Shown here one piece after another: positions 8,308 through 56,198 of a stretch of 64,000 nucleotides of DNA. The translations under genes were made by a program, and so were the position numbers. Source of the stretch: an uncultured candidatus Porisulfidus sp. (GTDB lineage Bacteria > Pseudomonadota > Gammaproteobacteria > Poriferisulfidales > Poriferisulfidaceae); NCBI GenBank assembly GCA_965199755.1, contig CBDASZ010000001.1, forward strand, positions 326,178-390,177, read 5' to 3'. Each line of letters begins with the position of its first letter. The stretch's first letter is position 1. The notes under the pieces are model-generated. The model was given only the letters and a program-made list of their open reading frames with translations, was not told where the DNA came from and made no database searches.

Positions 8308-8402
8308 GGCTATTCCAGCGTACCCGTGGTTGTATGTAGGATAATGACACCCGGGTTTCGCGCCGTTTGCCGATTTCCTCCCTAATACCCTCACTGAACA
8401 CC

Positions 8403-9266: not shown

Positions 9267-9307
9267 TACGAGCTGGCTCCATCCGGCGCCCTGCATTCCT
9301 GTCGGGC

Positions 9308-9976: not shown

Positions 9977-10276
9977 GATTTGGGTACCGGAAAAATATGC
10001 AGGCAGTATACCGGAATCCGCCATCCCTCCACAACGAGCCTCCCGCCGCATCCTGCATTCCCGACAGTCGACCGCTCTCGCAGCAATCCACCCCAAATAC
10101 CCCGACACAAAAAATTCCCCATATATTTCAAAATGCAAGACACTCATTCTGCGCAATTTCCAGCCGCCTCCACACGCCTCACAAACCGTCGCACTTGCAA
10201 TATGCCAAGCGAACAGGAACAATAAGCACCTGAATCCCGCGTGTTCGCCCGCGACTCTGTCTCGAAACCACGGCCG

Positions 10277-25006: not shown

Positions 25007-25831
25007 ATGAAATCGTTTGACGCCCCGGTGATCATGGGGATCCTCAATGTGACCCCGGACAGTTTCTCGGATGGCGGGGCCTATCCTTCGACGTCGCGTG
25101 CGGTCGCCCGCGCGGTGGAAATGGTGGAAGAGGGTGCGGCGATCATCGATGTTGGTGGTGAGTCCACCCGACCCGGCGCGGAACGCATTGATGCGACTGA
25201 GCAGAAGCGGCGTATTCTCGATGTGATTGAGGAGGTGCGCAAGGCGGTGGGGACAGAGATTCAGATCAGTGTGGATACGACGCTGAGCGAGGCGGCCAGC
25301 GCAGCACTGGATGCCGGTGCCGACATGATCAACGATGTGTCCGCGGGGCGTGATGACCCAGAGATGTTCGCGCTGGTGGCCGAGCGTGGTGTTCCTTATT
25401 GTCTGATGCACATGCAAGGCACGCCGATGACCATGCAGGATGATCCGCAATACGAAGATGTCGTGATGGAAGTGCGAGAGTTTCTGCTGGAACGCGCCAA
25501 GGTGGCGCAAGATTCGGGCGTGGCGCGTGAGCAGATTGTGCTGGACCCTGGCATTGGGTTTGGCAAGCGCACCGAGCATAACTTGCAACTGATCGCGAAT
25601 CTGCGCCAGTTGGTGGTAAGCGGCTATCCGATTCTATTGGGCACCTCGCGCAAGCGGTTTATTGGTGAGGTGGCGGGTTCTTCAGATCCGGCCTCACGGA
25701 TGCCGGCGACGGTAGCGACTACAGGCTTGGGGGTGTCCGCAGGAGTGCGAATATTCCGCGTGCATGATGTCTGGCAGAACTATCAGGCGATGCAAGTCGC
25801 GCAGGCGCTGCTGGAGCGGGAATATTCCTGA
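25007..25831 (+). CDS. folP: dihydropteroate synthase
   Basis: MKSFDAPVIMGILNVTPDSFSDGG...; 274 aa. Confidence 0.9.
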   Translation: MKSFDAPVIMGILNVTPDSFSDGGAYPSTSRAVARAVEMVEEGAAIIDVGGESTRPGAERIDATEQKRRILDVIEEVRKAVGTEIQISVDTTLSEAASAALDAGADMINDVSAGRDDPEMFALVAERGVPYCLMHMQGTPMTMQDDPQYEDVVMEVREFLLERAKVAQDSGVAREQIVLDPGIGFGKRTEHNLQLIANLRQLVVSGYPILLGTSRKRFIGEVAGSSDPASRMPATVATTGLGVSAGVRIFRVHDVWQNYQAMQVAQALLEREYS

Positions 25832-25972: not shown

Positions 25973-28696
25973 TTACTGAGCCAATCCGGCCTCCAGTTGC
26001 ACGGCGCAGAACTTGAACTCCGGGATCTTCCCAAGCGGATCCAGTTCCTCGTGGGTCAGCAGATTCGCAGCGGCTTCCTGATAACAGAACGGGGTGAACA
26101 CCTGACCGGGCATCAAACCCGGATCAACCCGTGTCGCGCATTCAATCGCACCGCGGCGTGAGCGCAAGGTTACAGGGGCACCGTCCTCAAGTCCCAGATC
26201 GTCGGCGTCCGTGGGCGACAGGAATGCGACGGCTTGCGGTTCCAGTGCGTTCAGTGTCTGTGAACGGCGTGTCATGGAGCCGGTATGCCAGTGCTCCAGC
26301 AGGCGTCCGGTGATCAGAATGTATGGGTAGCTCTGATCAGGCAGTTCGGCGGCTTCCCGAAATGCGGCAGGGACCAGATTGGCGCGACCACTGGCAGTGG
26401 GGAACTCATCCTGAAAGATCACTTCCTGACCGGGGTCTTCGTCACTCGTACACGGATAGGTGACGGAGCCGTTTTGCTCCAGTCGCTCCCAAGTGATGCC
26501 CTGAATCGTATCCATGCACTGGCGCATTTCCTCGAATACATCTTGGGCTTCCATTTCGGGCCAGTCCAGTCCCAGGCGCTGCGCGATTTGCTGAATGATC
26601 CACAGGTCTTGGCGGGCATCTCCCGGCGGCGGATGGGCGGGGCGGCCGAGTTGCACACGGCGGTCGGTGTTGGTGTAGGTGCCAGTTTTCTCCATGGCGG
26701 CGGAGGCGGGCAGGATGACATCGGCGTAGGCTGCGGTTTCGGTCAGAAACAGGTCTTGCACAACCAGATGGCGCAAGGTGCCGAGTGCAGCGCGTACGTG
26801 ATGCAGATTGGGGTCGGACATGGCCGGATTCTCGCCCATGATGTACATCCCTTGGATGTCACCGCGATGTGCGGCCTGCATGATCTCGACTACCGTCAGA
26901 CCTGGGCGAGAATCGAGGCTCATTCCCCACAACTGCTCGAAGCGTTGTTGCGCAGGCGCATGGTCGATGCGCTGGTAGTCGGGATAGACCATCGGGATGA
27001 GTCCGGCATCTGAGGCACCTTGTACGTTGTTTTGTCCGCGCAAGGGGTGCAGGCCGGTGCCGCGGCGTCCGATCTGGCCGGTGATTAGCGAGAGCGCAAT
27101 CAGACAGCGCGCGTTATCAGTGCCGTGCGTGTGTTGTGAGATGCCCATCCCCCAGAAGATCATGGAGGCGGAGGCGGTGGCGAACAGACGCGCGGCTTCT
27201 CTGATTTGGGTTGCCTCCACGCCGCACAGGCTCTGCACACGTTCCGGGGCGTAGTCGCGCACGTGTGCTTTGAGTTCTTCAAAGCCGTCAACACGCGCCT
27301 CAATGAAAGAGTGATCAACCCAGCCTTCTTCAATGATGGTGTGCAGCAGGGCGTTGAGCAGGGCAACATCCGTGTCTGGGTTGAATTGCAGGAACAGGGA
27401 GGCTTGTCTTGCCAGATCGGTCTGGCGCGGGTCCATGACGATCAGATTCTTGCCGTCGCGTGCGGCGTTTTTCATAAAGGTGGCGGCGACCGGATGATTA
27501 CCGGTCGGATTGGCACCGATGACCAGAATGGTCTCCGCGTAGGCGACATCGCTGACCGGGTTGGAGACGGCACCTGAACCGATGTCGGCCAGCAAGGCGG
27601 CAACGGAGGAGGCGTGGCACAGTCGGGTGCAGTGATCGACATGGTTGTTGCGGAATCCGCAACGCACCAGTTTCTGAAACAGATACGCCTCTTCATTGGT
27701 GCCTTTGGCGGAACCGAATCCGGCCAGTGCTTCAGGCCCTTTCTCTTCACGCAACGTAAGCAGGCCCTGCGCTGCCTGATCTAGCGCTTCATCCCAACTC
27801 GCGGGGCGAAACCATCCGCGAATTTCCTCACTGGAGACTTCGTTCAGGTCGAAGTCTTTGGGTGCGTCGTCGCGGCGTATCAGCGGCTCTAGCAGTCGGT
27901 CCGGATGGTAGGCGTAGTCGTAGCCATAGCGCCCCTTGACGCATAGCCGGCCATGATTGGAGGGGCCGTCGCGGCCATGTACTTCGACAATACGATCATT
28001 TTGAACACGCCAGCTCAGCAGACAGCCGACACCGCAGTAGGGACAGACGGAATCCACTTCACGCATCGCGTCATCGGCGATAGAGGTGGATTGCAGGGCA
28101 CCGGTCGGGCAGGCGCTGACGCATTCACCGCAGCCGACGCAGGAACTCTTACCCATGGGATCACTCAGATCAAAGGAGATCAGCGCTTTTGCTCCGCGCT
28201 GGACGTAAGCAATCACATCATTGTTCTGAACTTCGCGACACGCACGCACGCAGCGGGTACACTGGATGCAGGCATCCAGTTGTACGCGGATGGCCGGATG
28301 AGAGAGATCGGCGGGTGGTTGTTCGCGGCTAGGAAAGCGCGGTTCAGGGACGTCAAGTTTGCGGGCCCAGCTGTGCAATTCGCAGTCCGAGTCGCGTTGC
28401 TCCTGCATATCAGACAGCAGCAACTCCAGCACCATCTTCTGTGCGTCTTTCGCGCGTGTGTTTGCACTGCGCACCACCATGTCCGTGGTGGGGACACGGG
28501 TGCAAGCGGGTTGCAGGGCGCGTTCTCCTTCGATTTCGACCATGCAGGCGCGGCAATTGCCATCGGCGCGCAAGTCGTCGGTGTAGCACAGATGCGGGAT
28601 CTCAATCTGGTGTCGCTGCGCGGCTTGCAGGATGGTTTCTCCTTCCTGTGCTTCAATGCGGGTGTCGTTGAGCAGAAATGAGGTGGCGCCCATCAT
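25973..28696 (-). CDS. fdsA: NAD-dependent formate dehydrogenase alpha subunit (molybdopterin, 2Fe-2S/4Fe-4S)
   Basis: N-terminal 2Fe-2S (CYTDDLRADGNCRACMVEIEG), multiple 4Fe-4S Cys clusters, CPYCGVGC molybdopterin-enzyme motif. Start MMGATSFLLND at 28696 overlaps fdsB stop (ATGA); the table N-terminal extension to 28876 lies inside fdsB. Confidence 0.85.
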   Translation of the reverse strand: MMGATSFLLNDTRIEAQEGETILQAAQRHQIEIPHLCYTDDLRADGNCRACMVEIEGERALQPACTRVPTTDMVVRSANTRAKDAQKMVLELLLSDMQEQRDSDCELHSWARKLDVPEPRFPSREQPPADLSHPAIRVQLDACIQCTRCVRACREVQNNDVIAYVQRGAKALISFDLSDPMGKSSCVGCGECVSACPTGALQSTSIADDAMREVDSVCPYCGVGCLLSWRVQNDRIVEVHGRDGPSNHGRLCVKGRYGYDYAYHPDRLLEPLIRRDDAPKDFDLNEVSSEEIRGWFRPASWDEALDQAAQGLLTLREEKGPEALAGFGSAKGTNEEAYLFQKLVRCGFRNNHVDHCTRLCHASSVAALLADIGSGAVSNPVSDVAYAETILVIGANPTGNHPVAATFMKNAARDGKNLIVMDPRQTDLARQASLFLQFNPDTDVALLNALLHTIIEEGWVDHSFIEARVDGFEELKAHVRDYAPERVQSLCGVEATQIREAARLFATASASMIFWGMGISQHTHGTDNARCLIALSLITGQIGRRGTGLHPLRGQNNVQGASDAGLIPMVYPDYQRIDHAPAQQRFEQLWGMSLDSRPGLTVVEIMQAAHRGDIQGMYIMGENPAMSDPNLHHVRAALGTLRHLVVQDLFLTETAAYADVILPASAAMEKTGTYTNTDRRVQLGRPAHPPPGDARQDLWIIQQIAQRLGLDWPEMEAQDVFEEMRQCMDTIQGITWERLEQNGSVTYPCTSDEDPGQEVIFQDEFPTASGRANLVPAAFREAAELPDQSYPYILITGRLLEHWHTGSMTRRSQTLNALEPQAVAFLSPTDADDLGLEDGAPVTLRSRRGAIECATRVDPGLMPGQVFTPFCYQEAAANLLTHEELDPLGKIPEFKFCAVQLEAGLAQ

Positions 28697-30342
28697 TGCA
28701 CCTCTTCGGGGAAGTGGCGCAAGACCGACTGCAGCGGATTCGGAGCCGCTTGCCCCAGTCCACAGATCGAAGCGTCGCGCATGGTTTGGGACAACTCGTT
28801 GAGCAGGTCGGTATCCCAATGTTTCTCGCGCATCAGTGCGCTGGCCTTGCTGGTGCCGACGCGACAAGGGGTGCATTTGCCGCAGGATTCGCGGGCGAAG
28901 AAGGCCATGGCGTTACGTGCCGCATCGCTGGCGCGATCGGCGTCGGACAGCACGATGACCGCACCGGAACCGAGAAAGCAGTTGTGTTGCATCATGGTGT
29001 CGAAGTCCAGAGGCAGGTCACCGAGATACGCGGGCAGGATACCACCACTGGCTCCGCCGGGGAAATAGCCGTAGAACTCGTGGCCTGGCAGCATGCCGCC
29101 ACCGTACTCATCAATCAGTTCGCGTACGCTGATGCCGGCGGGGGCGAGGTGAACTCCGGGGATTTGGATGCGACCGCTGAGCGAGTATGAGCGCAGTCCG
29201 TGGCGTCCGCGGCGTCCGTGGTTGCGGTACCAGTCGGCACCATGCTCCAGAATCTTCGGAATCCACATCAGGGTTTCCATATTGTGTTCCAGAGTTGGCT
29301 GTCCGAACAGGCCGATTTCGGCAATGAATGGGGGACGCAGGCGCGGCATGCCGCGGCGACCTTCAATGGATTCGATCATGGCGGATTCCTCGCCGCAGAT
29401 ATAGGCACCGGCACCACGGCGTAACTCGATTGCCGGTAAGTCTGAATCAGACTCGCGCAGTTCTTGCAGCAGGGTCTCCAGCATCAGACGCACTCCGGTG
29501 TATTCGTCACGAATGTAGATGTAAACTGCTTGTGCCTCGATTAGATGAGCGGCCATCAGCATACCTTCGAGAAACGCATGCGGCTCGCGCTCTAGCCAGT
29601 AACGGTCCTTGAAGGTTCCCGGTTCGCCCTCGTCGATATTGACAGCGAGTAGGCGAGGGGGAGGGTAACTGCGCACGATTTGCCACTTGCGTGCGGCAGG
29701 GAAACCAGCACCTCCCAGACCGCGCAAGGTGGCGTACTCCATTGTGTCGATCAGTTGTTGGGGGTCCAGTTCCTTGCGCCGCAGGCGCATATAGTGGGCA
29801 TAGGCTCCAGCCTCCTGAGCTTCGGCGCAACTTGGGACTGCTGGCGGCGTGTCTCCCAAAGCCCGTTCGCTCAAGGCCTGTGTGACCTCCTTAAGGTTGG
29901 CGTGTCCGATTGGGTGCTGTCCCGCCACGGCTACAGGGGCGGTATCGCAACGACCGACGCAAGAGACCGCTTGAATGCGCACATCGGGGAAGTTTGCGCG
30001 TAACTCATCAGCCAGTTCCAAACCGCCCGCCATCGCGCAACTGATGGAGTCGCAAACGCGAACCGTGATCTCAGGAGGGTGGGTCTGGCCGTCCGTAATG
30101 TCGAAGTGATGATAGAAGGAAGCGACTTCGTGGACTTCTGCCACCGAAAGTTTCAGCCAGTCGGCTAGTGCAACTAGATGTTCCGGCGACAGGAAGCCGA
30201 AATGATCCTGCAACACGTGCAGATGCTCCAGTAGCAGGTCGCGTCTTGCGGGTATGGGCTCCAATAGGTGCACGATGTCTTCACGGGCAACTGTAGAGAC
30301 AGGTCGACCGCGTGGTTTGCGGGATGCTTGGGACGGTGGCAT
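28693..30342 (-). CDS. fdsB: NAD-dependent formate dehydrogenase beta subunit, fused NuoE-like (gamma) + NuoF-like (beta) domains
   Basis: N-terminal thioredoxin-like 2Fe-2S region (CDSISCAMAGG...CVGRCDTAPV) followed by NuoF-like NADH/FMN/4Fe-4S region (GLGGAGFPAARKW, ESCGKCTPCRVG); 549 aa. Confidence 0.8.
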   Translation of the reverse strand: MPPSQASRKPRGRPVSTVAREDIVHLLEPIPARRDLLLEHLHVLQDHFGFLSPEHLVALADWLKLSVAEVHEVASFYHHFDITDGQTHPPEITVRVCDSISCAMAGGLELADELRANFPDVRIQAVSCVGRCDTAPVAVAGQHPIGHANLKEVTQALSERALGDTPPAVPSCAEAQEAGAYAHYMRLRRKELDPQQLIDTMEYATLRGLGGAGFPAARKWQIVRSYPPPRLLAVNIDEGEPGTFKDRYWLEREPHAFLEGMLMAAHLIEAQAVYIYIRDEYTGVRLMLETLLQELRESDSDLPAIELRRGAGAYICGEESAMIESIEGRRGMPRLRPPFIAEIGLFGQPTLEHNMETLMWIPKILEHGADWYRNHGRRGRHGLRSYSLSGRIQIPGVHLAPAGISVRELIDEYGGGMLPGHEFYGYFPGGASGGILPAYLGDLPLDFDTMMQHNCFLGSGAVIVLSDADRASDAARNAMAFFARESCGKCTPCRVGTSKASALMREKHWDTDLLNELSQTMRDASICGLGQAAPNPLQSVLRHFPEEVQ

Positions 30343-30346
30343 GGAA

Positions 30347-30892
30347 TCAGCGCAACAGGGCAGTGAAGAACTCTATAGATTCAGAAGAGTCCCACTCGCG
30401 AATGCCGCTGACCCAATAGAGTGCGTGGCCGTCTTGATCAAGTAGGAAGGTGGTCGGCAGAGCACGGATTCGCCAGTCGCTCAGGGCTAAATTCGCATCC
30501 ACTAGAATCGGGAAATTGACCGGTGTTTCGCTCAGAAATTCCTGCATTTCTGGCGAGGGTCCAGAGTGAATTCCGATAATTTGGAGGCGCTCTGGGTCCA
30601 TCGCCTGTTGCAGGCGGTTTAGTGCCGGCATCTCTTCACGACAGGGGGTGCACCACGTCGCCCAGAAGTTGATCAGCAGCATTTGCCCTCGTTCCTGACT
30701 CAATTGCCAGTGGTTGCCGTCGAGATCCGGCAAGGTGAAGTCTGGAGCCAGCCGGCCGGAGGCCGGATTCATGAACTTTCCAGTTGTGTCAGGTTTCAAC
30801 TCTTCGGTTGTTTTAGTTTCCAGGAGGTATAGATAGCTTGAAATACCAAGGGCAAAGGCGCCGACCGCGGCGATGATCAGCAGTTGCTTCAT
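30347..30892 (-). CDS. TlpA/ResA-family periplasmic thiol:disulfide oxidoreductase
   Basis: Signal/TM anchor MKQLLIIAAVGAFALGI, thioredoxin motif WATWCTPCREEMPAL. Confidence 0.75.
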   Translation of the reverse strand: MKQLLIIAAVGAFALGISSYLYLLETKTTEELKPDTTGKFMNPASGRLAPDFTLPDLDGNHWQLSQERGQMLLINFWATWCTPCREEMPALNRLQQAMDPERLQIIGIHSGPSPEMQEFLSETPVNFPILVDANLALSDWRIRALPTTFLLDQDGHALYWVSGIREWDSSESIEFFTALLR

Positions 30893-32262
30893 GGTTCGAT
30901 TCCCAGTGTGTTGTCGTGGGCCCAGTTAGGGTCTTCCGCGCTCAGATCTCCGATGGGCGCGGCGAAGGCGTCAGCGACGATTTCCGGGATGTTGGCACCG
31001 GTGAGGGAGCGCAAGAAGGCTTCGAGATCCTGCTTTTCCTGCTCGCTCAGGCTCAGGGGGAAGATAAGGGGCGAGAGCAGTTCGTTCGGGATGCCGCCCT
31101 GATCGTAGAACTCAATCACTTCGCGTAAGGTGCTGAGTTGGCCGTTGTGCATGTATGGGGCGCTGAGTGCGATGTTGCGCAGGCTCTGGGTGCGGAACTT
31201 CCAGCGGTCGTTGGGGTTTTCAGTGACGCGATAGAGGCCGAGATCATTGGGCAGTTTCTGTTGCGTTACGGCGGCGATTTTCTCGTTGTCTACATCCACG
31301 AAAACACCCGGGGCGAGTTGTACGCGGGTGGTTTCTGATTCATTGCCAACCTTTTTGCCGAATGAGACGGCATAGCCGAGACCGGTATTGTGAAACTGCT
31401 GATCGGTGAACAGGGCGTGTTCCTTGTTGATGGTGTGACAGGCGATGCAGTTCGCCTTGCCGGAGAAGACCGAGAAGCCGCGTTTGACGGATTCGTCCAC
31501 GGCATCAGGCTGATTGCTGAAATGCCAGCGATCGAAAGGGGAGTCCCCGGTGAGCAGGGTGCGCTGATAACTGGCTAGCGCTTGTCCGATGGTCACAATG
31601 CTTGGTGTGGCACCGTCGAAGGCGCGTTCGAACAGGCCGTCGTAATCTTTCATGCGCTGAATCTTGTTAATCACCCAGCCGATCGAGGGCGCGGCCATTT
31701 CATTGTGCGCGGTGATGGGCTGCCAGACTTGGTTCTCCAGACTGAACTCGCGACCGTCCAGAAACAGTCGGATCAAATAAGCGCTGTTGTATAGGCTTGG
31801 TGAGTTGCGCAGCACGGAGCGGCCTTCGACACCGACGGCAGTACGCATTTCATTATTGGTGAAGCCCTGTTCCGGGACATGGCAGGTGGCGCAGGAGAAG
31901 GTGTCATTGATCGACAGGCGGCGATCGAAGAACAGCTTGCGACCCAGATCAATTTTGGTTCGGGTTAGCGGATTGTCAGTCGGGATGGGGACTGCGGGCA
32001 GTCCCAGAGGCGGGTTTTGCACATAGCGGATCAGATCTTTCTTGACCCCACGGCGCTTTTCCAGACTGCGAGAGCGTGTCGTATAGTCATCGCTTTCGTA
32101 GCCTTCCTTGACGTCTCCCGGACCTTGCGTGTGGGTGGCGTCAAACTGATCGGAGGCGTCGACCTCACCACTGGTTTGCGCCCAGACCGAAACGGACAGG
32201 GCACTGCCGCATGCGATGCCGAGGACGGCACAGAGAGTATCGGGCGAACGGCGCATGGCCAC
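30889..32262 (-). CDS. di-haem cytochrome c peroxidase family protein (MauG/CcpA-like)
   Basis: Two CxxCH haem motifs (CATCHVPEQGF; CIACHTINKEH), signal peptide, ~457 aa. Confidence 0.8.
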   Translation of the reverse strand: MAMRRSPDTLCAVLGIACGSALSVSVWAQTSGEVDASDQFDATHTQGPGDVKEGYESDDYTTRSRSLEKRRGVKKDLIRYVQNPPLGLPAVPIPTDNPLTRTKIDLGRKLFFDRRLSINDTFSCATCHVPEQGFTNNEMRTAVGVEGRSVLRNSPSLYNSAYLIRLFLDGREFSLENQVWQPITAHNEMAAPSIGWVINKIQRMKDYDGLFERAFDGATPSIVTIGQALASYQRTLLTGDSPFDRWHFSNQPDAVDESVKRGFSVFSGKANCIACHTINKEHALFTDQQFHNTGLGYAVSFGKKVGNESETTRVQLAPGVFVDVDNEKIAAVTQQKLPNDLGLYRVTENPNDRWKFRTQSLRNIALSAPYMHNGQLSTLREVIEFYDQGGIPNELLSPLIFPLSLSEQEKQDLEAFLRSLTGANIPEIVADAFAAPIGDLSAEDPNWAHDNTLGIEP

Positions 32263-32264
32263 GC

Positions 32265-32957
32265 TCAGCCGGATGAAGCCTCCATCAGGAGCGTTTCCAG
32301 GTCCGCAATCAGGATGTCGGCATGCAAGAACGAAACACTGTATATGTTGCGCACGCGCAAGTCCTGATCAATCAGATAGACCCGAAGCATGTGTGCGAAG
32401 TCGCCGGTGTAGTTGCCTTCCTCATCGTATTCGCGCAGGGTGTATTGCCCGTAGTCCTCCAAAATGGGTTCCAGAGTTTCGCGATCCTTGGTGGTCAGGA
32501 ACTGCCAGTCCACGCCTTCGCCACCGAGTCCCTTGCCAAACTTGCGCATGGTTTCAGGGCTGTCGCGTTCGGGATCGAAGGATATGGAGAGCAGCCGGGA
32601 GGCTTGCGCCAGTTCCGGGCGCGCTTTCAGTTTGGCGTGCAACTTGTGGAATACGGCGTTGGCCAGCGGGCAGCCGTTGAGGTCAGAGCACTTGGTGTAG
32701 ATGAAACTAAACAGTACCAGACGGTCACCCATCAGATCGAACAACTGGGTGGATTGCCCGTCTTCTTTCAGCACACTGCCGTCTGCGGCCTGCATGATGG
32801 GCGGCAACTGGTAGGTGCCTGGGGCGGGTGGCTCGTAGCTGAGTGTGCGCCATCCGGGCGCGAGAATTTCGTCGCGGCGATCAGAGGCGACCGCGGTGAG
32901 GCTCAGGCATAGCAAGAGCACAGGGGCGAGGATTCGCGAGCGGGGGCAGTGTGTCAT
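32265..32957 (-). CDS. SCO1/SenC-family copper chaperone-like protein
   Basis: Internal start MTHCPRSRILAPVLLLCLSLTAVA (signal); thioredoxin-fold with Cys-pair region FSFIYTKCSDLNGCP. Weaker than the canonical CxxxCP motif, so assignment rests partly on conserved mtoX context. Confidence 0.55.
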   Translation of the reverse strand: MTHCPRSRILAPVLLLCLSLTAVASDRRDEILAPGWRTLSYEPPAPGTYQLPPIMQAADGSVLKEDGQSTQLFDLMGDRLVLFSFIYTKCSDLNGCPLANAVFHKLHAKLKARPELAQASRLLSISFDPERDSPETMRKFGKGLGGEGVDWQFLTTKDRETLEPILEDYGQYTLREYDEEGNYTGDFAHMLRVYLIDQDLRVRNIYSVSFLHADILIADLETLLMEASSG

Positions 32958-33078
32958 GGTCGGGAAAGTGGTATGTGTTTGACTATTGTATGTTGCGGTA
33001 GTTCCAAAAACAAAAGCCGCCCCTCGCGGGGCGGCTCTGTAGTGCCAGAGTCGAAGTCGTGAGACTTCGACGGAATCT

Positions 33079-34419
33079 TTATTCCGCGCTGGCGACGCGG
33101 TTGTCGTCAGGACGTTTGCCGTACAGGGAGTAGGCACCAAAACGCATCTGATGCGACCGTCCGAGTTTCTCGGCATAGAAGTCAATCGTCCACTGATGGG
33201 CTAGTGCCTCGCCGTCCCAGTGGTACAGCTTGACGTACTGCTCATCCGCTTCTCCGGCCTTGTCCCAATTGCCTAGCAGGGAACTGGAGAAATAGACACG
33301 CTCACCGTCCCAGCTTTGCGAGACCATGTTGACTTGTGAGCCGATCGCTTCCTCAAACACCTGATGCGGTGCATGCGGATCAGAGATGTCGAAGAAACGG
33401 GTCTTGCCGTCCATGAACGTGTTGATCCACAGGCCGTTGTCGTCCGCGGTGATGGAGATGTCTACCGGCAGAGGCACAGCGGAAGGCTCTCCGACGGAAG
33501 CAACAGCTTTGCCTTGCCATTCGCCGCTCTCATCTTCGTACAGCAGCCAGAGCTGAGAGGTCAGCGCGGTGGTGGTGAAGCAGTAGCGGTGATTCGGATC
33601 CCAGGCACAACGAATTTCGAGCGGGGCACCGGGCACGTCGAGTACCTTTATCGGGTTGCGCGTGTGCATGTCCCAGACCACCATGGTGTTGCCGAAACGC
33701 TGCATGGCTTCGCTGTCCTGCAGCATCTGGCCGAAGTCCATCATGTAGTTGGACCAGCCGGTGAAGGATGAGGTGAGCATGACATTGCTTTCCGCCTTCA
33801 CGCGCACATCGTAGCCATAGCCGTCGGCGTGCTGGCCAGTTTTGACAGCGCCGCGCAGGTCTTCATCAGTCGGCATCCAGTGTGATGCGACAAACTCGCC
33901 GGCGTTGTTGTATTCCGCCAGTCCAGTGCGTCCGCCGTGATCAGCGTTGTTGGACAGTGCCGAGATCATGACTCGGCCGGGCAGAGCGTAGAAGGTGTGC
34001 GGGCCAACCATGCCGCCGGTTTTCTCGACGAAGTCGGTGATGACCTTGTGCAGGCTCGGCTGACGCGGGTTGCTGTGAATGTCAAACACGAAAATCTTGT
34101 TTGAGTCCAGACCGCCGGCCCACAGATATTTGCGGTCATCGGATAGTCCAGAGTGATGTGCCTCGTTACGGCCACCGACTGACAGCACGCTGACAATGGA
34201 GCCATAAGTAGCGGAGTCGGGGTTGGTGTCGATGGTGACCAGTTTGTCCTGCTCGTCACCGATTCCTTCAACACCCAGCGTCCAGACATAAACGTAGTCT
34301 TCCTGGCCTTGAATCTTGGCGATGTAGGGGGACATGCAGGTCTCATCCGCGTGTGCTGGCATTGTCCAGACCATTGCGGCCGCCATCACCAGGCCCGTGC
34401 TAAATAGAGTTTTCTTCAT
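33079..34419 (-). CDS. mtoX: selenium-binding protein (SBP56) family; putative Cu-dependent methanethiol oxidase
   Basis: Start MKKTLFSTGLVMAAAMVWTMPAHA (signal; GAGGAAA RBS upstream) preferred over table start 34482. Body matches SBP56 family over ~440 aa (YVYVWTLGVEG..., beta-propeller repeats). Genomic association with SCO1/senC and mauG as described for Hyphomicrobium mtoX. Confidence 0.8.
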   Translation of the reverse strand: MKKTLFSTGLVMAAAMVWTMPAHADETCMSPYIAKIQGQEDYVYVWTLGVEGIGDEQDKLVTIDTNPDSATYGSIVSVLSVGGRNEAHHSGLSDDRKYLWAGGLDSNKIFVFDIHSNPRQPSLHKVITDFVEKTGGMVGPHTFYALPGRVMISALSNNADHGGRTGLAEYNNAGEFVASHWMPTDEDLRGAVKTGQHADGYGYDVRVKAESNVMLTSSFTGWSNYMMDFGQMLQDSEAMQRFGNTMVVWDMHTRNPIKVLDVPGAPLEIRCAWDPNHRYCFTTTALTSQLWLLYEDESGEWQGKAVASVGEPSAVPLPVDISITADDNGLWINTFMDGKTRFFDISDPHAPHQVFEEAIGSQVNMVSQSWDGERVYFSSSLLGNWDKAGEADEQYVKLYHWDGEALAHQWTIDFYAEKLGRSHQMRFGAYSLYGKRPDDNRVASAE

Positions 34420-34606
34420 GAGTTTCCTCGTAGGTTGTGCGTTGTTATCCTGGCGATTGGGACCGTGCCACGAGCGACGCACGCAGCCTCCCGAATTGCC
34501 TGCCCCCCATTATGGCGTAATCTGGGCGGGCGTCAAGTGCGGGCGCGAAAGGCAATGTGATAGTATCGGGTGGCGAAACCCAAGGGTGCCCACATCAGGC
34601 GAAATA

Positions 34607-35335
34607 ATGCACGAAGGAGCCGTATCCGTTCATTCCGAATTTCGGAAATCGAGAAAGCGTCGAGTTCGCCGTGGCGAAGCCACGAACGATCTGGTAGTCA
34701 GCGCAAGCGCGGAGGGGAATGAGCAAGTATTTCCACGCATTCTTGATCTTTATGTGGGTTCGGGGAGCGTGGTCGCTGACGTGACTTATGGCAAGGGAGT
34801 CTTCTGGCGTCACGTGCCTGACGACAAGTACACACTTCTGCCGAGTGACATTCAGGACGGGGTCGATTGCCGCAAACTGCCGTATAGAGACGGGGAGATT
34901 GACTGTGTGATTTTTGATCCGCCTTATATGCACTCACCAGGCGGGACCGCCCACGAGGGCCATACCCCGTTCGAAGAGCACTACCGCAATAACGGCACGG
35001 GCAATCAGACGGCCAGCAAGTATCACGAGGCTGTGCTCGACTTGTATCAGGATGGTGGGAGTGAGGCGTGGCGCGTTTTGCGGGAGCGGGGTGTGCTGAT
35101 CGTCAAGTGTCAGGACGAGGTGTGTTCCAATCGCCAGCGATTCACGCATGTCGAGATCATGCAGATGTATGAAGAGATGGGTTTTGTGGCCGAAGATTTG
35201 TTCGTCGTGATGCGCAAAAATCGCCCAGGAGTGAGTCGTGCTGTTCGGCAGGTGCACGCGCGCAAGAATCACTCTTACTTTCTGGTGTTTTGGAAGCGTG
35301 ATGCGACGAAGCGGCGCTGGAATCCTCCGAAATGA
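34607..35335 (+). CDS. small SAM-dependent methyltransferase with motif I (LDLYVGSGS) followed ~50 aa later by DPPY; gamma-like order; putative DNA N6-adenine/N4-cytosine MTase
   Basis: ILDLYVGSGSVVADVTYGKG ... DGEIDCVIFDPPYMHSPGG. Only ~242 aa, so no obvious target-recognition domain. Start 34607 chosen because table start 34334 would overlap the divergent mtoX start. Confidence 0.55.
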   Translation: MHEGAVSVHSEFRKSRKRRVRRGEATNDLVVSASAEGNEQVFPRILDLYVGSGSVVADVTYGKGVFWRHVPDDKYTLLPSDIQDGVDCRKLPYRDGEIDCVIFDPPYMHSPGGTAHEGHTPFEEHYRNNGTGNQTASKYHEAVLDLYQDGGSEAWRVLRERGVLIVKCQDEVCSNRQRFTHVEIMQMYEEMGFVAEDLFVVMRKNRPGVSRAVRQVHARKNHSYFLVFWKRDATKRRWNPPK

Positions 35336-35826
35336 ATTCCGTTGAACTGCTGGTCGAGATAATCAAGGAGCATGCACCGGAAGACATTTGGCAAGCCTCT
35401 CCGCTCATAGGGTATCGTTTGCTCGGCAACACAAACAGGGGCGAGATCGGAGAGGAGTTTATCTGCAGGTATTTGCGTGCCGCTGGGATTGAAGCCACGG
35501 GCGGTGGACGGGTGGCTGCAACTGATATGACCATTGGAGAATTTAGATTTGAAGTGAAAACAGCCTCTCTCGGAGCAAAAGGAGGCTTCCAGTTCAATCA
35601 TGTGCGGCTGGATCGTCGCTACGACTATCTGCTTTGCCTTGGGATCTGTCCGCAGGAAATTGTGTTCAACATGTGGAGGAAAGGAGAGGTTGCAGAAGAA
35701 CGCGCAGGGCGGCTTGTGAGGATGGCAGAAGGACAGGCCGTCACCTACAAGCTCACCAAGAAGTTGGCAGATATGCAAGCCATAGAGGAGCTGCCTAATG
35801 TTTTGCGTGATGCACTGGAGTTGTGA
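35332..35826 (+). CDS. hypothetical protein with PD-(D/E)xK-like motif (putative restriction-endonuclease-like or specificity partner)
   Basis: ATGA overlap with MTase stop; ...AATDMTIGEFRFEVKTASLG... (D-x6-E-x-K) followed by QFNHV; 164 aa; no family confidently recognised. Confidence 0.4.
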   Translation: MNSVELLVEIIKEHAPEDIWQASPLIGYRLLGNTNRGEIGEEFICRYLRAAGIEATGGGRVAATDMTIGEFRFEVKTASLGAKGGFQFNHVRLDRRYDYLLCLGICPQEIVFNMWRKGEVAEERAGRLVRMAEGQAVTYKLTKKLADMQAIEELPNVLRDALEL

Positions 35827-36245
35827 TGGGAAATATGAATAAAAGAGTGCGGTCAGTGAGTACTGCGTTTCGCTCTTACTTGCGCGAAGTCTCGCAGGTA
35901 CGGTTAACTGGTCAGGCGACTGAGAACAGTTATCAATCGGCGTTGAAAGTGCTTGTTGAAGTGTTAGGTGGGAATGGCGTACGTGCCCTAAATGAACCGG
36001 CACAAGTTGCTTGTGGAGCACCGGATTTGGTTGTTAGTCGTAATGATGTGCCAATCGGACACATCGAATGCAAAGATGTCGGAATTGATCTTGATCGGGT
36101 TGAAGATACTGAACAGTTGAAGCGCTATCATCAAGGACTTCCCAATCTTGTGCTGACAAACTATCTGGAATTCCGCTGGTATGCCGATGGCGAACTGCGT
36201 GAGGTGGAGTGCCTTGGACACATAAGAAAAAAATTGTTGCGATAA
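35823..36245 (+). CDS. HsdR_N-like (Type I R-subunit N-terminal / MmeI N-terminal type) PD-(D/E)xK nuclease domain protein
   Basis: ATGA overlap with upstream ORF. GAPDLVVSRNDVPIGHIECKDVGIDLDRVEDTEQLKRYHQGLPNLVLTNYLEFRWYADGE parallels the MmeI/HsdR N-terminal nuclease signature (..vDLfwpg.lliEmKs.g.dLd.a..Qal.Y.....p.yvlv.df..frl.d), recalled from memory. Ends at an A7 run. Confidence 0.5.
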   Translation: MMGNMNKRVRSVSTAFRSYLREVSQVRLTGQATENSYQSALKVLVEVLGGNGVRALNEPAQVACGAPDLVVSRNDVPIGHIECKDVGIDLDRVEDTEQLKRYHQGLPNLVLTNYLEFRWYADGELREVECLGHIRKKLLR

Positions 36246-36454
36246 TGTGTTCTCAAATCTCACCCTCAATATGGTCAGACTCTAAAGCAGACATTTTGAA
36301 GGCAAGGGCAGAGGCATTTTCAGTACTACGGGAACACTCTATGGAAGAAGTTCGCGATTTAGTTGAAGAAAAACTGGCTTTAATAAGACGCGACATCCAT
36401 AAGATTCGGGAACAAGAAGCCAAAGAGCATGAAGGCGAACAACGCTTCGAATAA
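36209..36454 (+). CDS. coiled-coil ORF in -1 frame relative to upstream ORF; possible frameshift-fusion extension
   Basis: 81-codon ORF (..EEVRDLVEEKLALIRRDIHKIREQEAKEHEGEQRFE) that would be joined to the 35823..36245 ORF by a -1 shift (or +1 A) at agAAAAAAAttg (36226-36236). Region markedly A+T-rich. Confidence 0.3.
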   Translation: MPWTHKKKIVAIMCSQISPSIWSDSKADILKARAEAFSVLREHSMEEVRDLVEEKLALIRRDIHKIREQEAKEHEGEQRFE

Positions 36455-36468
36455 GTTCGGGGGTACAC

Positions 36469-36792
36469 ATGGCCAATCAGTTCGTGACATTAACGGAACG
36501 TGCGGCGGAGCAGATCCGTCCGCAGCTACCGGAAGGCGAGGAAGGAGTCGCTTTGCGCTTGGCGGTGCGCAAACTCGAAGACGGCAGTTTCCACTACGCA
36601 ATGGGATTTGATGTGGCCAATCGTGAGGGGGACCAGACTTTCATGGCGCACAAGATACCGTTGGTGGTCGGCGCGGACTCTCTGGCGCTGGTGCGAGGGA
36701 TGACCGTGGAGTATGCGGAGCTGAAACCTGGCGAGCATCGGTTTATTTTCCTCAACCCCAACGATCCGAACTATGTTCCGCCCGAAGACTGA
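36469..36792 (+). CDS. HesB/IscA-like fold protein lacking the conserved Cys triad
   Basis: MANQFVTLTERAAEQIRPQL...GVALRLAVRKLEDGSFHYAMGFDVANREGDQTF...LVVGADSLALVRGMTVEY parallels the IscA/HesB layout but contains no cysteine; 107 aa. Confidence 0.45.
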   Translation: MANQFVTLTERAAEQIRPQLPEGEEGVALRLAVRKLEDGSFHYAMGFDVANREGDQTFMAHKIPLVVGADSLALVRGMTVEYAELKPGEHRFIFLNPNDPNYVPPED

Positions 36793-36810
36793 TCTCATTG
36801 AGACGGACTG

Positions 36811-37728
36811 ATGATGACAGGACAGGTCGGGTCATTGCTGGGCGCGGCAGTCCTATTGCTGGTACTGGGGCTCGGTGCGTGGGCGTACAGATGTCGTCTT
36901 CGGCCTTATACGGCGATTCGACATTGGGCGGACCGGATGCGCGGCGGGGATCTTTCCGCGCGGCTGGCTGTCCCGAGACGGGGCGGGTTCGCGGAACTGG
37001 CAAAAGACATTAATGTGCTGGCGGAAATGGTCCAGACCTTGTCGCGCACGACGGAAGAGCAGCTGCAGGAGTTCACCGACTACGCTGCGATGAAGGAACG
37101 CACCCGAATCTCCGGGGAGTTGCATGATTCACTGGCGCAAACCTTGGCCAGCATCAAAATTCAGGTGCGAGTGTTGGACGAGACCTTGCATCAGGGCGAC
37201 GAGGAGCGCGTATGGCAGGAGTTGGAGCAGGTCGAGAACAGTCTGGAAGAAGCGAACATTGAGTTGCGTGAATTAATTGCTCATTTCCGCGCACCGGTCG
37301 GGGAGGCCGGGCTGGTGCCGTCCGTTGAGCGGGCGGTGGAGCGGTTTCGTAGAGAGTGCCCTGGGGTGCGGGTGTTTTTGCAGAACCGGTGGGAGGAGTT
37401 GCATCTGCCGCTCGACCATGAAGTGGAGATCGTGCGCATCGTGCAGGAAGCGCTGGCTAACGTGCGCAAGCACTCTCACGCTAATACTGTGCGCATCATG
37501 ATTGACGCGGATGCGGCTCGTGGACAGGGGCGGGTGTTGGTCGAGGATGACGGAGTGGGTTTTGCGCATGCACCAGTGGAAGATGACACTGGAGCTCATG
37601 TTGGGCTGAATTTGTTGCGAGACCGTGCCAGTCGTCTGGGCGGGAGCTTGCGGGTCGAGAGTGAACTTGGAGAAGGGGTGAGAATTGCGCTGGAATTTGA
37701 GACGATGGCGCAAGAGGTGGCAGCATGA
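36811..37728 (+). CDS. sensor histidine kinase, NarX/DegS-type (HisKA_3 + HATPase), single TM + HAMP, no periplasmic domain
   Basis: TM LLGAAVLLLVLGLGAWAY, HAMP-like linker, H-box ELHDSLAQTLASIKIQV, ATPase G-boxes; 305 aa. Confidence 0.8.
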   Translation: MMTGQVGSLLGAAVLLLVLGLGAWAYRCRLRPYTAIRHWADRMRGGDLSARLAVPRRGGFAELAKDINVLAEMVQTLSRTTEEQLQEFTDYAAMKERTRISGELHDSLAQTLASIKIQVRVLDETLHQGDEERVWQELEQVENSLEEANIELRELIAHFRAPVGEAGLVPSVERAVERFRRECPGVRVFLQNRWEELHLPLDHEVEIVRIVQEALANVRKHSHANTVRIMIDADAARGQGRVLVEDDGVGFAHAPVEDDTGAHVGLNLLRDRASRLGGSLRVESELGEGVRIALEFETMAQEVAA

Positions 37729-38423
37729 GCGTTCTGAAAGTCACCGTGATTGATGATCACACGCTGTTTAGGGAAGGCTTGCAGGGTTTGCTGGAGCGTC
37801 ATGGTCTCAAGGTACTGGACTCGGTGGGTGATTCGGAGTCCGGGTACGCAGCGGTGCAGGCACGGCAACCGGATGTGGTGCTTTTGGATTTGCGATTGCC
37901 GCAGACTGATGGTCTGGAGATATTGCGTACGATGAAGGCGGACAAGGAGTGTCCGCCGATTGTGATGCTGACTACCAGTGATCATGAACAGGATCTGGTG
38001 GAGGCCTTGCGCGCGGGCGCAAGTGGCTACCTGCTGAAGGATATGGAACCAGATGATTTGGTGGCCGCGCTGCGCGCCATTGTGTCAGGAGAGACTGTGG
38101 TGGCACCGAGTTTGGCACCGGCGCTGGCGCGGGTGGTGCAGGGACACGAGCCAGCACCCGCACCGAAAGACGAAGAAGGGCTGTTTGATGCGCTGACTCC
38201 GCGCGAGCGGGAGATATTGATTCTGTTAGCGGAAGGATTGAGCAACCGTGGGATTGGCAATAGTTTGGGAATTTCCGAAGGGACGGTGAAAGCCCATGTC
38301 AAGGCGATCTTGCGCAAACTTGATGTGGCGTCGCGCGTGGTGGCGGCCGTGCTCGCGGTTGAGCACGGACTGGCCGCACCGAAAGCGATTGGTGAGATGC
38401 AGGTAGGGCGGGATAATTTTTAG
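37725..38423 (+). CDS. response regulator, NarL/FixJ family (REC + LuxR HTH)
   Basis: VTVIDDHTLFREGL...DVVLLDLRLP...LTPREREILILLAEGLSNRGIGNSLGISEGTVKAHVKAILRKL. Confidence 0.85.
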   Translation: MSVLKVTVIDDHTLFREGLQGLLERHGLKVLDSVGDSESGYAAVQARQPDVVLLDLRLPQTDGLEILRTMKADKECPPIVMLTTSDHEQDLVEALRAGASGYLLKDMEPDDLVAALRAIVSGETVVAPSLAPALARVVQGHEPAPAPKDEEGLFDALTPREREILILLAEGLSNRGIGNSLGISEGTVKAHVKAILRKLDVASRVVAAVLAVEHGLAAPKAIGEMQVGRDNF

Positions 38424-38457
38424 GTGTTGGGTGTAGCCGCTAGAGCTTGAATCTGGT

Positions 38458-38964
38458 TTGGGTTTTAGAGTTGTTATGAAACTTGTTTTTTGGTTATTGA
38501 CCGGACAAAGCTTTTCGAGACCACATCTTGCTGCAGCTTGTGCCAACGCATTACGATCAGGTCGGGCCATGACTGACCAAAACAAAACCACGCAGCTGAT
38601 TGTGCAACTCACTATAGACATCTGGGAAGAGATAACCATGCCCCCGGCTGGGTAGGCTTTGCTGCTTTCTGGGTCCACTGGAGTTTGTGATCCACCTACG
38701 ATTGCTCCACTTTCTGATACGAACAAGCTCAAGATTGATGTCGTTGACAAGCGGAAGGAACTTGATTCTTTTGATCCAGAAGGAGGTTTCCGAAAAATTG
38801 GTGTCACTGCACGCTCATGGGAACAGAGAGACAAGTCACCTCCTTCTCAAACTTCGAGAGACATGTTGAGAGATATGATTAAAAACAAAACTACAAGTTC
38901 AGTTCCTGCTTCAGATGTTTCCCTTCTAGCGCTAGACAAGCCGATAAAAGACAGTAGAGAATAA
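38458..38964 (+). other. unknown ORF pair separated by an in-frame TAG (38653-38655) in an A+T-rich islet; possible disrupted gene
   Basis: ORFs 38458..38655 and 38659..38964 are in the same frame, separated only by TAG. N-terminus MKLVFWLLTGQSFS is signal-like. No family recognised; markedly lower GC than surroundings. Confidence 0.2.
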
Positions 38965-39173
38965 GTCTGCAACAAAGAGGCTTTGGCCTATTGCCCGCTA
39001 CCAATCACATGTCTCTAGGTGGTACACAGACCGTAGGTGTGCCAGTGGGAGTTAGGGTCTTCACCCGCAAATAAAAGTCATAAATTTGTAACTCTCGCTC
39101 TATACGATGCGTCACCAGCACCTGCTTGCAGGTCTGGTCTATCTTAAATTTGCACACTCACGAGGGTTTATCC

Positions 39174-40721
39174 ATGAGTAGCTACTCACGCCACGTTGCT
39201 GCGTCAGTTGTTTTTTTCTTCGCGCTTTCGCCCCCAGCCATCGGACTTGCCTTCGCGGATGAGCTCGAACAGTTAAAGCGTGAAAACGTACAGATGAAGG
39301 AGATGCTCATGCAGATGCAGGAGCAGCTTCAGAGCGTTATCGCCAAGACCAATGCAATGGAAAGTCAGGTTGAGGCTAATAAGGAAGACATCACGATTAA
39401 GACCACAGGTGGTGGGATTCAGGTGAAATCCAGCAACGGCGACACGTTTAAGGTTGGCGGTCGATTGATGCTCGATCATGACTCCTATGATTCATTCTGG
39501 AACGGAGGCGATGGTTCTGCGGAGGAGAACGAAATTCGCCGTTCACGGATCACCTTCAGCGGCAATTCAGGCAAGAACTGGGCGTACAAGTTAACCGTTG
39601 ATATTGACCACGAAGACGAAAACGCTTCCATAGATACGGGTTGGTTGCAATATTCCGAGGGCGGTGTTGGCGTAAAAGTGGGTAAGTTCGGGCGTCCCGG
39701 CATGATCGAGGAGCGCACCAGTTCCAAGTGGATTTCCACGATTGAACGTTCCATCATCAATGAATTGGCTGGCGCGACCATCAGCAAACCCAATTTTGGC
39801 GGTGTGGCACTGAGCTATAAGACCGAGGGTGATCTGCCGATGAGTGCCGAGTTCGGTGTGTATGACGACGAGATCGACGAGGACGATGGTTCAGATATCT
39901 ACGGGATTGGTTACCGCTTGGCCATCTCGCCGGAATTTGGCGACAACTCCTTCGCACATTTGGGTGCTTCCGGGTATTCTGTAGATTACAAGGGTCAGGA
40001 TCTGCGCATGCGCTCACGTATGGGTGTTCACACCGCAGGCCGTCCGTTCGAGACCCGGAAAATGGCGACGGATGATATTACGCAGGTGGGTGTTGAACTG
40101 GCGTATGTTCGCGGACCTTTCTCGCTGCAGGCTGAATACATGAATGTGGAGTCAGACGGGACCGATAACGGAGCATGCGTGCCCCCTGAGGTGGCGATCA
40201 AACGCAATGACGGTGGGTCGGCAGTCCGAGATGATGATGGCAAAGTCCAGTTGGATTCATCAGCCAGCAATACCTGTGATATGGAGATGGATGGTTTCTA
40301 CTTGCAGGCTGCTTATACGCTGACTGGAGAGACCCGTGGCTACAAAGCCGGTTCAGGTGCCTTCGCCGCGATCAAGCCGAAAAGCGCAAGCGGTGCTTGG
40401 GAGTTGGTCGCGCGTTATGAAGATGCGGAAGTCGACGTTGATGCACAAGGTTTGAATTCTGAGTTGAACCGCATGGTGCTGGGCCTCAACTGGTACGCCA
40501 ACAAGAACCTCAAGTTCATGTTGAACTATGTCGATTCGGAAATAGATGGCTGCTATGGCAATATGTGGATGGTCGACAGGGATGTGTCATTTGAGAGTGT
40601 TCCCTCGGACAATGTAGACCACGCCAGCGGTGATGGTATGTTCGTGCATAAAGCTTGTGGAAATGGCATGGATAAAGATGACGGCAATGCCATTTCACTG
40701 CGAGCCCAGTACGTGTTCTGA
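39174..40721 (+). CDS. phosphate-selective porin O/P family protein with N-terminal coiled-coil
   Basis: Start MSSYSRHVAASVVFFFALSPPAIGLAFA (signal), coiled coil ELEQLKRENVQMKEMLMQMQEQLQ, beta-barrel body ending ...AISLRAQYVF (C-terminal Phe). OprO/P-like blocks (GRLMLDHD, LNWYANKNLKFMLNY). Confidence 0.7.
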   Translation: MSSYSRHVAASVVFFFALSPPAIGLAFADELEQLKRENVQMKEMLMQMQEQLQSVIAKTNAMESQVEANKEDITIKTTGGGIQVKSSNGDTFKVGGRLMLDHDSYDSFWNGGDGSAEENEIRRSRITFSGNSGKNWAYKLTVDIDHEDENASIDTGWLQYSEGGVGVKVGKFGRPGMIEERTSSKWISTIERSIINELAGATISKPNFGGVALSYKTEGDLPMSAEFGVYDDEIDEDDGSDIYGIGYRLAISPEFGDNSFAHLGASGYSVDYKGQDLRMRSRMGVHTAGRPFETRKMATDDITQVGVELAYVRGPFSLQAEYMNVESDGTDNGACVPPEVAIKRNDGGSAVRDDDGKVQLDSSASNTCDMEMDGFYLQAAYTLTGETRGYKAGSGAFAAIKPKSASGAWELVARYEDAEVDVDAQGLNSELNRMVLGLNWYANKNLKFMLNYVDSEIDGCYGNMWMVDRDVSFESVPSDNVDHASGDGMFVHKACGNGMDKDDGNAISLRAQYVF

Positions 40722-40917
40722 CCCCGACAAGAAACAATCAGGCGTGTTCGCAATGTCTGAGGGCCAACTACAGAAACCCACTGCTTAGGGAAACTGAGTG
40801 CGGATTTTTATCGCATTTCCCTTCAATATGTTAAACTCCAAGTCCATGATTCTTGCCGAATTCCCATCTGTTGCGGATTCGGGCCGGAGCGATCCGATGC
40901 CATTTCCTCTCTGGTCG

Positions 40918-56122: not shown

Positions 56123-56198
56123 GCGCCCGTGGCTCAGTGGATAGAGCACTGGCCTCCGGAGCCAGGGGTCGCAGGTTCGAATCCTGCCGGGCGCGCCA
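56123..56198 (+). tRNA. tRNA-Arg (anticodon CCG)
   Basis: Cloverleaf folded by hand: acceptor gcgcccg/cgggcgc, D-arm gctc-agtggata-gagc, anticodon arm ctggc-CTCCGGA-gccag (CCG), variable gggtc, T-arm gcagg-ttcgaat-cctgc, discriminator g + encoded CCA. Confidence 0.85.

Follow-up and report, generated by a model that had tools for sequence, protein, structure and literature searches.

A methanethiol oxidase cluster joined head-to-tail to a formate dehydrogenase of two genes in an uncultured Candidatus Porisulfidus: a lineage-specific link with probable separate transcription of mtoX

The DNA considered here, called the window, is a stretch of 64,000 nucleotides (nt) from an uncultured Candidatus Porisulfidus sp. 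(assembly GCA_965199755.1, contig CBDASZ010000001.1, positions 326,178 to 390,177). Its minus strand contains, between positions 25973 and 34419, six consecutive open reading frames (ORFs), all co-directional, which according to the ORF calls and translations are, from 5′ to 3′, mtoX, a senC-like gene, a mauG-like gene, a tlpA-like gene, fdh1B (fdsGB), and fdh1A (fdsA). The product of mtoX (33079–34419) is a putative periplasmic, copper-dependent methanethiol oxidase of the SBP56 family, recognized by its profile match. It is followed by a predicted periplasmic copper chaperone with an atypical Cx5C motif (senC-like, 32265–32957; PF02630), a MauG/BthA-like di-haem enzyme (mauG-like, 30889–32262; PF03150), and a predicted membrane-anchored periplasmic thioredoxin with a WCTPC motif (tlpA-like, 30347–30892; Redoxin/AhpC-TSA). 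The last two genes encode the subunits of a formate dehydrogenase (FDH): fdh1B (28693–30342; three Pfam domains) the NAD/FMN-binding beta subunit, a fusion of NuoE and NuoF, and fdh1A (25973–28696; TIGR01591) the molybdopterin/tungstopterin catalytic alpha subunit.

The spacer between mtoX and the senC-like gene is 121 nt long. The gap between the senC-like and mauG-like genes is 2 nt with a GTG start (8 nt with an ATG start), the mauG/tlpA and fdh1B/fdh1A junctions are each 4-nt ATGA overlaps, and 4 nt separate the tlpA-like gene from fdh1B. With values of 2, −4, 4, and −4 nt, the junctions from senC to fdh1A are of the short or overlapping kind seen within one operon. In this respect, a preliminary description of this DNA (six minus-strand genes with junctions of at most 5 nt or overlapping, except for about 120 nt after mtoX) is borne out, as are its assignments of MtoX and of a two-gene FDH with a fused NuoE+NuoF beta subunit, which agree with NF052453, TIGR01591, and the three Pfam domains.

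MtoX scores 745.9 bits on the NF052453 equivalog (cutoff 650) and 162.9 bits on SBP56 PF05694; it is a putative methanethiol oxidase by family membership. All of 26 homologues compared share four histidines, His88, His89, His141, and His423, which would correspond to the copper ligands proposed by Eyice et al. 2018 (PMC5739008), the correspondence with the Hyphomicrobium numbering being one that we infer. From sequence, MtoX (N terminus ...PAHA/DETC), the SenC-like protein, and the MauG-like protein are assigned signal peptides and the TlpA-like protein a membrane anchor; the FDH subunits are predicted to be cytoplasmic because they have neither. An exact-sequence look-up of this MtoX in public assemblies gave no match. 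The best matches among GTDB species representatives, at 86–91% identity, are from Candidatus Porisulfidus metagenome-assembled genomes or from sponge- or coral-associated Gammaproteobacteria. The comparisons below use the best 80 of at least 572 matched mtoX loci, one per GTDB species representative (the 492 more distant ones were left out). The loci come from pattern scans, and the six proteins, together with that of the neighboring gene folP, were located in them by tblastn.

Upstream of mtoX, a candidate sigma-70 promoter (TTGACG-N16-CATAAT, 34509–34536, minus strand) agrees with the consensus at 10 of 12 positions. The sequence ACTTGACG-N16-CCATAAT is invariant in eight species of the Porisulfidus group, and the sequence further upstream is not conserved. 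The mtoX 5′ leader (34420–34508, minus strand) has partly conserved blocks and ends in a GAGGAA ribosome-binding site; the whole promoter and leader region (34420–34536) could contain an operator or act as a regulatory leader. A GC-rich hairpin in the leader (about 85 nt) was considered as a conserved structure and rejected, the covariation term of +0.43 giving no support. The Rfam scan of the whole window returned no molybdenum cofactor (Moco) or other riboswitch near the cluster.

In the spacer after mtoX, two hairpins occur on the minus strand. The first, just 3′ of the mtoX stop, is small and perfect (33050–33071; GTCGAAGTC-TCAC-GACTTCGAC); its position is kept in relatives, with compensatory changes (pairs at columns 18–22/33–37). 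The second is a predicted intrinsic terminator (33003–33038), with a stem of 11 base pairs (bp), eight of them G-C, the loop GCGA, and a tail of TTTTGTTTTT. A hairpin followed by a T-tract is present in the mtoX–senC spacer of 35 of 70 related loci, among them every locus of the Porisulfidus group and those of a second lineage, clade B. Ten spacers, when aligned, share 12 pairs of the terminator stem; two positions show compensatory changes, and the loops vary. Beyond the terminator lies TACAAT (32985–32990, minus strand), a candidate −10 box; the internal promoter would serve the senC-like gene and the genes downstream. It is an instance of a conserved TAnAAT that occurs exactly once in each of the nine Porisulfidus-group spacers (9/9), 22–45 nt past the terminator, for a background rate of 1.7e-4 per nt. 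A sigmaE-like match in the same spacer of the window (GGAACTA-N16-TCAAA) was dropped because L001 and L002 do not share it.

Since a strong and conserved terminator stands between mtoX and the senC-like gene, mtoX probably has a transcript of its own. The most likely arrangement is one of two predicted transcription units, mtoX alone and senC-mauG-tlpA-fdh1B-fdh1A, which terminator read-through may link; the genes from senC to fdh1A are very probably transcribed together. The preliminary description had taken the six genes as one apparent operon. In its full form, this alternative proposes a single six-gene operon that is induced by methanethiol and was selected to couple methanethiol oxidation with formate oxidation, SenC and TlpA loading copper, the di-haem protein removing H2O2, and FDH completing the oxidation of the C1 unit. 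We consider it unlikely. Although terminators after a first gene often allow partial read-through, one operon from mtoX to fdh1A would be free of internal terminators and promoters, and here the predicted terminator and the conserved −10 box split mtoX from the other five genes. Downstream, a coding-strand scan from senC to the end of fdh1A gave a single terminator-like match, a weak stem of 5 bp within mauG. The coding strand of tlpA has no promoter-like site, and the sole internal promoter-like match is a 9/12 site in mauG, the region-wide count being equal to the shuffled expectation.

The SenC-like protein reaches 49 bits on PF02630 (gathering score 22.8), so that its placement with SCO1/SenC copper chaperones stands at the family level. 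The canonical motif is lacking: where Sco proteins have CxxxCP, the aligned copper site reads CSDLNGCP (Cx5C), with the distal histidine (His189) present. This CxDxNGCP motif and the distal histidine are invariant in 70/70 mtoX-linked SenC homologues (L001–L080), and the Cx5C subfamily may be a dedicated copper chaperone of MtoX.

The di-haem protein matches PF03150 above the gathering score and falls below the cutoffs of the MauG model TIGR03791 (209 bits vs. 443.85) and of the MbnH model (241.6 bits vs. 362.85). Its best solved relative is BthA (6E1C), then come peroxidases, then MauG. All mtoX-linked homologues (67/67) keep two CxxCH motifs and Tyr386. In the alignment, the position of Tyr386 is occupied by Met in the Geobacter peroxidase 4AAL and by a Tyr in BthA. 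A match to BthA Tyr463 by residue number was abandoned: the offsets between the numbering of the paper and that of the PDB chain drift (118, 144, 151), and the basis of the assignment is therefore the alignment, including the peroxidase Met at the same place. With a Tyr at that position, the protein would lack the Met–His ligated high-potential haem of CcpA; the combination of two CxxCH motifs with a Tyr in place of the peroxidase Met is that of MauG, the identity of the ligand being deduced from the alignment. Tyr–His ligation sets MauG and BthA apart from peroxidases (PMC6405878), and the invariant Tyr thus indicates MauG/BthA-type chemistry and hence a part in MtoX maturation, the published role of the mtoX-linked MauG homologue and SCO1 (PMC5739008, PMC6548844). 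The MauG-like protein is probably an MtoX maturation factor, and a protein-modifying or maturation role is favored over the simple removal of peroxide that had been proposed for it and that the single-operon alternative includes. It may still have peroxidase activity, because BthA also turns over H2O2. In Methylophaga growing on dimethyl sulfide (DMS), the H2O2 response consists of catalase and peroxiredoxin (PMC6548844).

The TlpA-like protein has Redoxin and AhpC-TSA matches, a thioredoxin fold, a CxxC motif, and an apparent N-terminal hydrophobic anchor. These features agree with the TlpA type given in the preliminary description, whereas the equivalog cutoffs are missed, both for TlpA (NF047696, 92.3 bits vs. 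230) and for ResA (92.4 vs. 170). WCxPC is invariant in 35/35 homologues (WCTPC in the window). TlpA of Bradyrhizobium japonicum (1JFU, 4TXO) is among the PDB matches. The TlpA–ScoI relay of B. japonicum (4TXO) likewise pairs a membrane-anchored periplasmic CxxC thioredoxin with a copper chaperone of the Sco family; it differs from the window, where the TlpA-like protein is below the equivalog cutoff, the presumed Sco partner has Cx5C and not CxxxC, and the presumed target is MtoX and not cytochrome oxidase.

The FDH alpha subunit scores 747.6 bits on TIGR01591 (cutoff 666.25). Its best solved relative is the alpha subunit of the tungsten FDH of Methylobacterium extorquens (7VW6_A, 1181 bits over the full length), with which the Cys–His active-site motif HCTRLCHASS aligns; an FdsABGD-type subunit, 6TG9_A, gives 572 bits. 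The beta subunit holds PF01257 (2Fe-2S_thioredx), PF01512 (Complex1_51K), and PF10589 (NADH_4Fe-4S) in one chain of 549 residues, the single NuoE+NuoF fusion of Fdh1AB-type enzymes, and is closest to the M. extorquens beta subunit 7E5Z_B (629 bits; residues 7–546 aligned to 22–561 of the chain). FDH1 of M. extorquens AM1 (7E5Z, 7VW6) has the same two subunits, fused beta chain, and Cys–His motif; the alpha subunit of the window lacks its N-terminal extension of about 65 residues, and the genomic context differs, with folP and the mto genes as neighbors here. The FdsABGD enzymes of Rhodobacter capsulatus and Cupriavidus necator (6TGA, 6VW7) are also cytoplasmic, NAD-dependent metal FDHs with complex-I-like modules, but their gamma and beta subunits are separate and they come with FdsD and FdsC. 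In the window, gamma and beta are fused, neither fdsC nor fdsD is in the cluster, and directly past fdh1A stands the convergent folP (dihydropteroate synthase, 25007–25831, plus strand; PF00809), used as a synteny anchor. Given the best matches to M. extorquens FDH1, the much lower score of FdsABGD, and the lack of fdsC and fdsD, fdh1BA is a better name than fds. By its sequence, the enzyme is of the M. extorquens tungsten FDH1 (Fdh1AB) type, tungsten and molybdenum forms being indistinguishable at this level.

Comparative synteny of mtoX loci, which the preliminary description had put forward as a check, separates a common core from a rare extension. The genes senC and mauG follow mtoX in 68/80 loci, and in the window they do so on the same strand and immediately downstream; one or two copies of tlpA come after mauG in 35/80. 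FDH genes (fds) occur within 10 kilobases (kb) of mtoX in 12/80 loci. In three of these (L001, L007, L008), they are co-directional and directly after tlpA, with the six-gene order of the window and a tlpA–fdsGB junction of 3–10 nt; its recurrence in three other species means that the order is not a chance arrangement. Besides the window, the six-gene form is carried by OY764335, OZ244883, and RKRZ01000063. In nine loci of clade B (L041, L031, L032, L035, L037, L040, L044, L047, L050), fds is divergent and the order is folP+ fdsA- fdsGB- pcd+ sco- mtoX+ senC mauG tlpA tlpA, with pcd (pterin dehydratase) and a canonical Sco gene between fds and mtoX. Inversion of the mto block converts this order into that of the window. 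The additional Sco of clade B, divergent from mtoX, scores 157 bits on PF02630; pcd encodes a pterin-4a-carbinolamine dehydratase, and the tlpA that comes after mauG is present as two paralogues in tandem. In L041, the stretches with these extra genes are 8632–9591 and 13532–14762.

Among the species of Porisulfidus itself, four (L002, L003, L004, L006) show the order mtoX-senC-mauG-tlpA, then the convergent folP at most about 45 nt farther on, and no fds at the locus. The species without fds are represented by OZ241993, OY288106, OZ220694, and OZ220480. The MtoX tree groups the four in a single subclade, with relatives that bear fds around it, and a single loss therefore accounts for them. 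The gene folP adjoins fdsA in seven of the ten loci with flank available beyond fdsA, and in the 57 fully flanked loci it lies within 10 kb of mtoX in 20, compared with eight for fds. As a housekeeping gene is at least as conserved a neighbor as fds, shared ancestry alone can explain the adjacency. Around 13 metagenome relatives of FdsGB (47–67% identity), no mto genes occur in the available upstream flank (2.7–10 kb in about six); fdsGB-fdsA was seen wherever the sequence sufficed, many of the 13 loci being short.

Within the 80 loci, the FDH link is confined to two related lineages and is co-directional only in part of Candidatus Porisulfidus. The single-operon alternative is favored by the tight co-directional arrangement of the six genes in four species and by the presence of fds beside the mto cluster in the second lineage too. 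Against it stand the four sister species that retain mtoX-senC-mauG-tlpA without fds, the divergent fds of clade B with its two intervening genes, folP as the more frequent neighbor, and the metagenome FdsGB relatives without mto genes in the available flank. The data suggest that the joining of FDH is a recent and dispensable rearrangement and not a fixed metabolic module; by gene content and order, the locus represents the known mto cluster in a variant specific to its lineage. The module proposed at first, coupling methanethiol to formate oxidation, remains chemically sensible, but its FDH part is restricted to two related lineages and absent from the locus in sister species.

The junction between tlpA and fdh1B bears on a second alternative, in which fdh1BA is a neighbor of the mto genes for historical reasons only, shares no expression with them, and depends on a separate promoter within tlpA or mauG, under independent regulation, for example by formate or by the supply of molybdenum or tungsten. 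The sole candidate start of fdh1B near the junction is, in the four species, an ATG 3–10 nt past the tlpA stop, except that in L007 there is an upstream alternative start, overlapping tlpA. Coupled genes typically have such spacing, and no intergenic room remains for signals; the scan described above shows no promoter-like site in tlpA and only the 9/12 match in mauG. Both observations oppose independent transcription. In its favor, fdsGB-fdsA is a self-sufficient two-gene unit elsewhere, the fds of clade B has its own divergent upstream region, the 4-nt gap contains no recognizable Shine–Dalgarno sequence, and tying a catabolic enzyme to maturation genes expressed at a low level would be an odd design. 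Taken together, purely historical adjacency appears quite improbable.

The reading that we prefer, with a probability of about 0.6, is that a standard gammaproteobacterial mto cluster has been joined to a neighboring Fdh1BA, that the locus forms two transcription units, and that the link is opportunistic and not an obligatory module; it is called opportunistic because sister species keep the mto genes without FDH at the locus. The mto cluster would consist of mtoX and three periplasmic maturation genes, for the Cx5C SenC-like protein, the MauG/BthA-like Tyr–His di-haem enzyme, and the TlpA-like thiol reductase. In one sub-lineage of Candidatus Porisulfidus, a sponge symbiont, the mto block would have been inverted beside an ancestral folP-fdh1A-fdh1B, so that it now lies head-to-tail with FDH. 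Transcription of mtoX alone, from the conserved sigma-70 promoter to the conserved terminator, would allow a high output of MtoX. The genes senC-mauG-tlpA-fdh1B-fdh1A would be expressed by read-through of the terminator and/or from the conserved −10 box, with translational coupling at the tight junctions. The cytoplasmic FDH would convert formate into CO2 and NADH, the formaldehyde produced by MtoX being one plausible source of formate; NADH from formate, besides sulfide, would be a direct gain for a thioautotroph. A functional coupling of mto genes and FDH is plausible and is not required by this reading; the comparative data do not demonstrate it.

Several points weigh against this two-unit, opportunistic reading. 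The TAnAAT box of the mtoX–senC spacer has no convincing −35 element beside it, and the promoter, the terminator, and co-transcription are predictions made from sequence. The inversion is proposed from a comparison of gene orders and not of breakpoint sequences, and the MtoX tree (neighbor-joining, without support values) does not make Porisulfidus and clade B sisters. The tlpA–fdh1B junction of 3–10 nt is kept although TlpA identity across the species concerned is only 54–76%, which could reflect selection for co-expression. Finally, the ATG of fdh1B has no recognizable Shine–Dalgarno sequence in the 4-nt gap at 30343–30346 (...GCGCTGATTCCATG), whereas mtoX has GAGGAA; the expression of fdh1B must then rely on coupling or on an unseen signal, and the missing element suggests termination–reinitiation coupling to tlpA.

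Clusters with mtoX, SCO1/senC, and mauG are known from Eyice et al. 2018, who proposed roles in copper loading and cofactor maturation for the accessory proteins (PMC5739008). Hyphomicrobium sp. VS and Ruegeria pomeroyi (PMC5739008) have the same first three genes in the same order and an MtoX with the four histidines; the window differs by the terminator between mtoX and senC, by the Cx5C SenC, and by the tlpA and FDH genes that follow. Unlike in Roseobacters, there is no adjacent IclR regulator. Methylophaga thiooxydans has two mto clusters, with mtoX, a sco1/mauG fusion, a TlpA-like gene, pdo, sqrB, and sulP (Kroeber and Schaefer 2019; PMC6548844). Here also mtoX, Sco and MauG functions, and a TlpA-like gene are found together with genes for product handling appended downstream, but in Methylophaga sco1 and mauG form one fused gene and what is appended deals with sulfide, whereas in the window FDH is appended, on the C1 branch. 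An association of tlpA with mto genes is therefore already published (PMC6548844). No description of an mto–FDH gene fusion was found in those papers examined that mention both mtoX and formate dehydrogenase, nor in a lucinid preprint. In Methanococcus, an SBP56 gene near selenocysteine FDH genes was read as a hint to C1 metabolism (Self et al. 2004, as cited in PMC5739008). That case differs from the window, as the FDHs are archaeal, of F420- or selenocysteine type, with no Sco, MauG, or TlpA genes and no operon-like junction. In Methylophaga growing on DMS, FDH is modestly increased, 2.17-fold (PMC6548844), which is in line with a methanethiol-induced single operon.

A further proposal is that, in part of Candidatus Porisulfidus, the maturation genes and the W/Mo FDH form one translationally coupled, methanethiol-responsive transcript, with methanethiol as a dual substrate. 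We hold this as tentative and rather doubtful. If true, sulfide would feed respiration and the C1 unit would yield NADH directly in a sponge-associated thioautotroph, and the locus would parallel, for the C1 branch, what the mto clusters of Methylophaga are for the sulfide branch. Methanethiol is a central intermediate in the turnover of dimethylsulfoniopropionate (DMSP) and DMS, and sponges host dense populations of sulfur-oxidizing symbionts; with transcriptional coupling of FDH and mto genes, symbionts would gain electrons from the sulfur of methanethiol as well as from its carbon, an added organosulfur route in holobionts. The impact is limited, as few species, all uncultured, have the FDH linkage and their sisters can do without it. 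For annotation in this clade, mtoX should probably be treated as monocistronic and the accessory genes as separately controlled, the mtoX-linked di-haem protein as MauG/BthA-like and not as a peroxidase, and the linked SenC as a protein with a distinct Cx5C motif.

On the far side of folP lie dnaG and gltB, and the remainder of the window consists of housekeeping genes. The preliminary description had drawn in an mtdA for the step from formaldehyde to formate. An mtdA/mtdB-family gene is present (8367–9266, plus strand; PF09176, Mpt_N, 90 bits; no NCBIfam match at 1e-10), and its occurrence in the window would suit the single coupled operon; it is, however, 17 kb from the cluster, beside tkt, gap, pgk, pyk, and fba, with no linkage to the mto genes. 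It is adjoined by an unannotated ORF of 304 residues (9308–10222, minus strand). Upstream of mtoX, the region 34300–40800 has a lower GC content (0.51–0.55) and contains a DNA methylase (34334–35335), an IscA/HesB-like gene, a histidine kinase with a LuxR-type response regulator (36811–38423), and ORFs without Pfam match (e.g., 35275–36021). It is not syntenic with L007, where a STAND NTPase occurs instead, and may be a rearrangement breakpoint or a variable island. The single tRNA gene of the window, at 56123–56195 on the plus strand, is its sole Rfam match.

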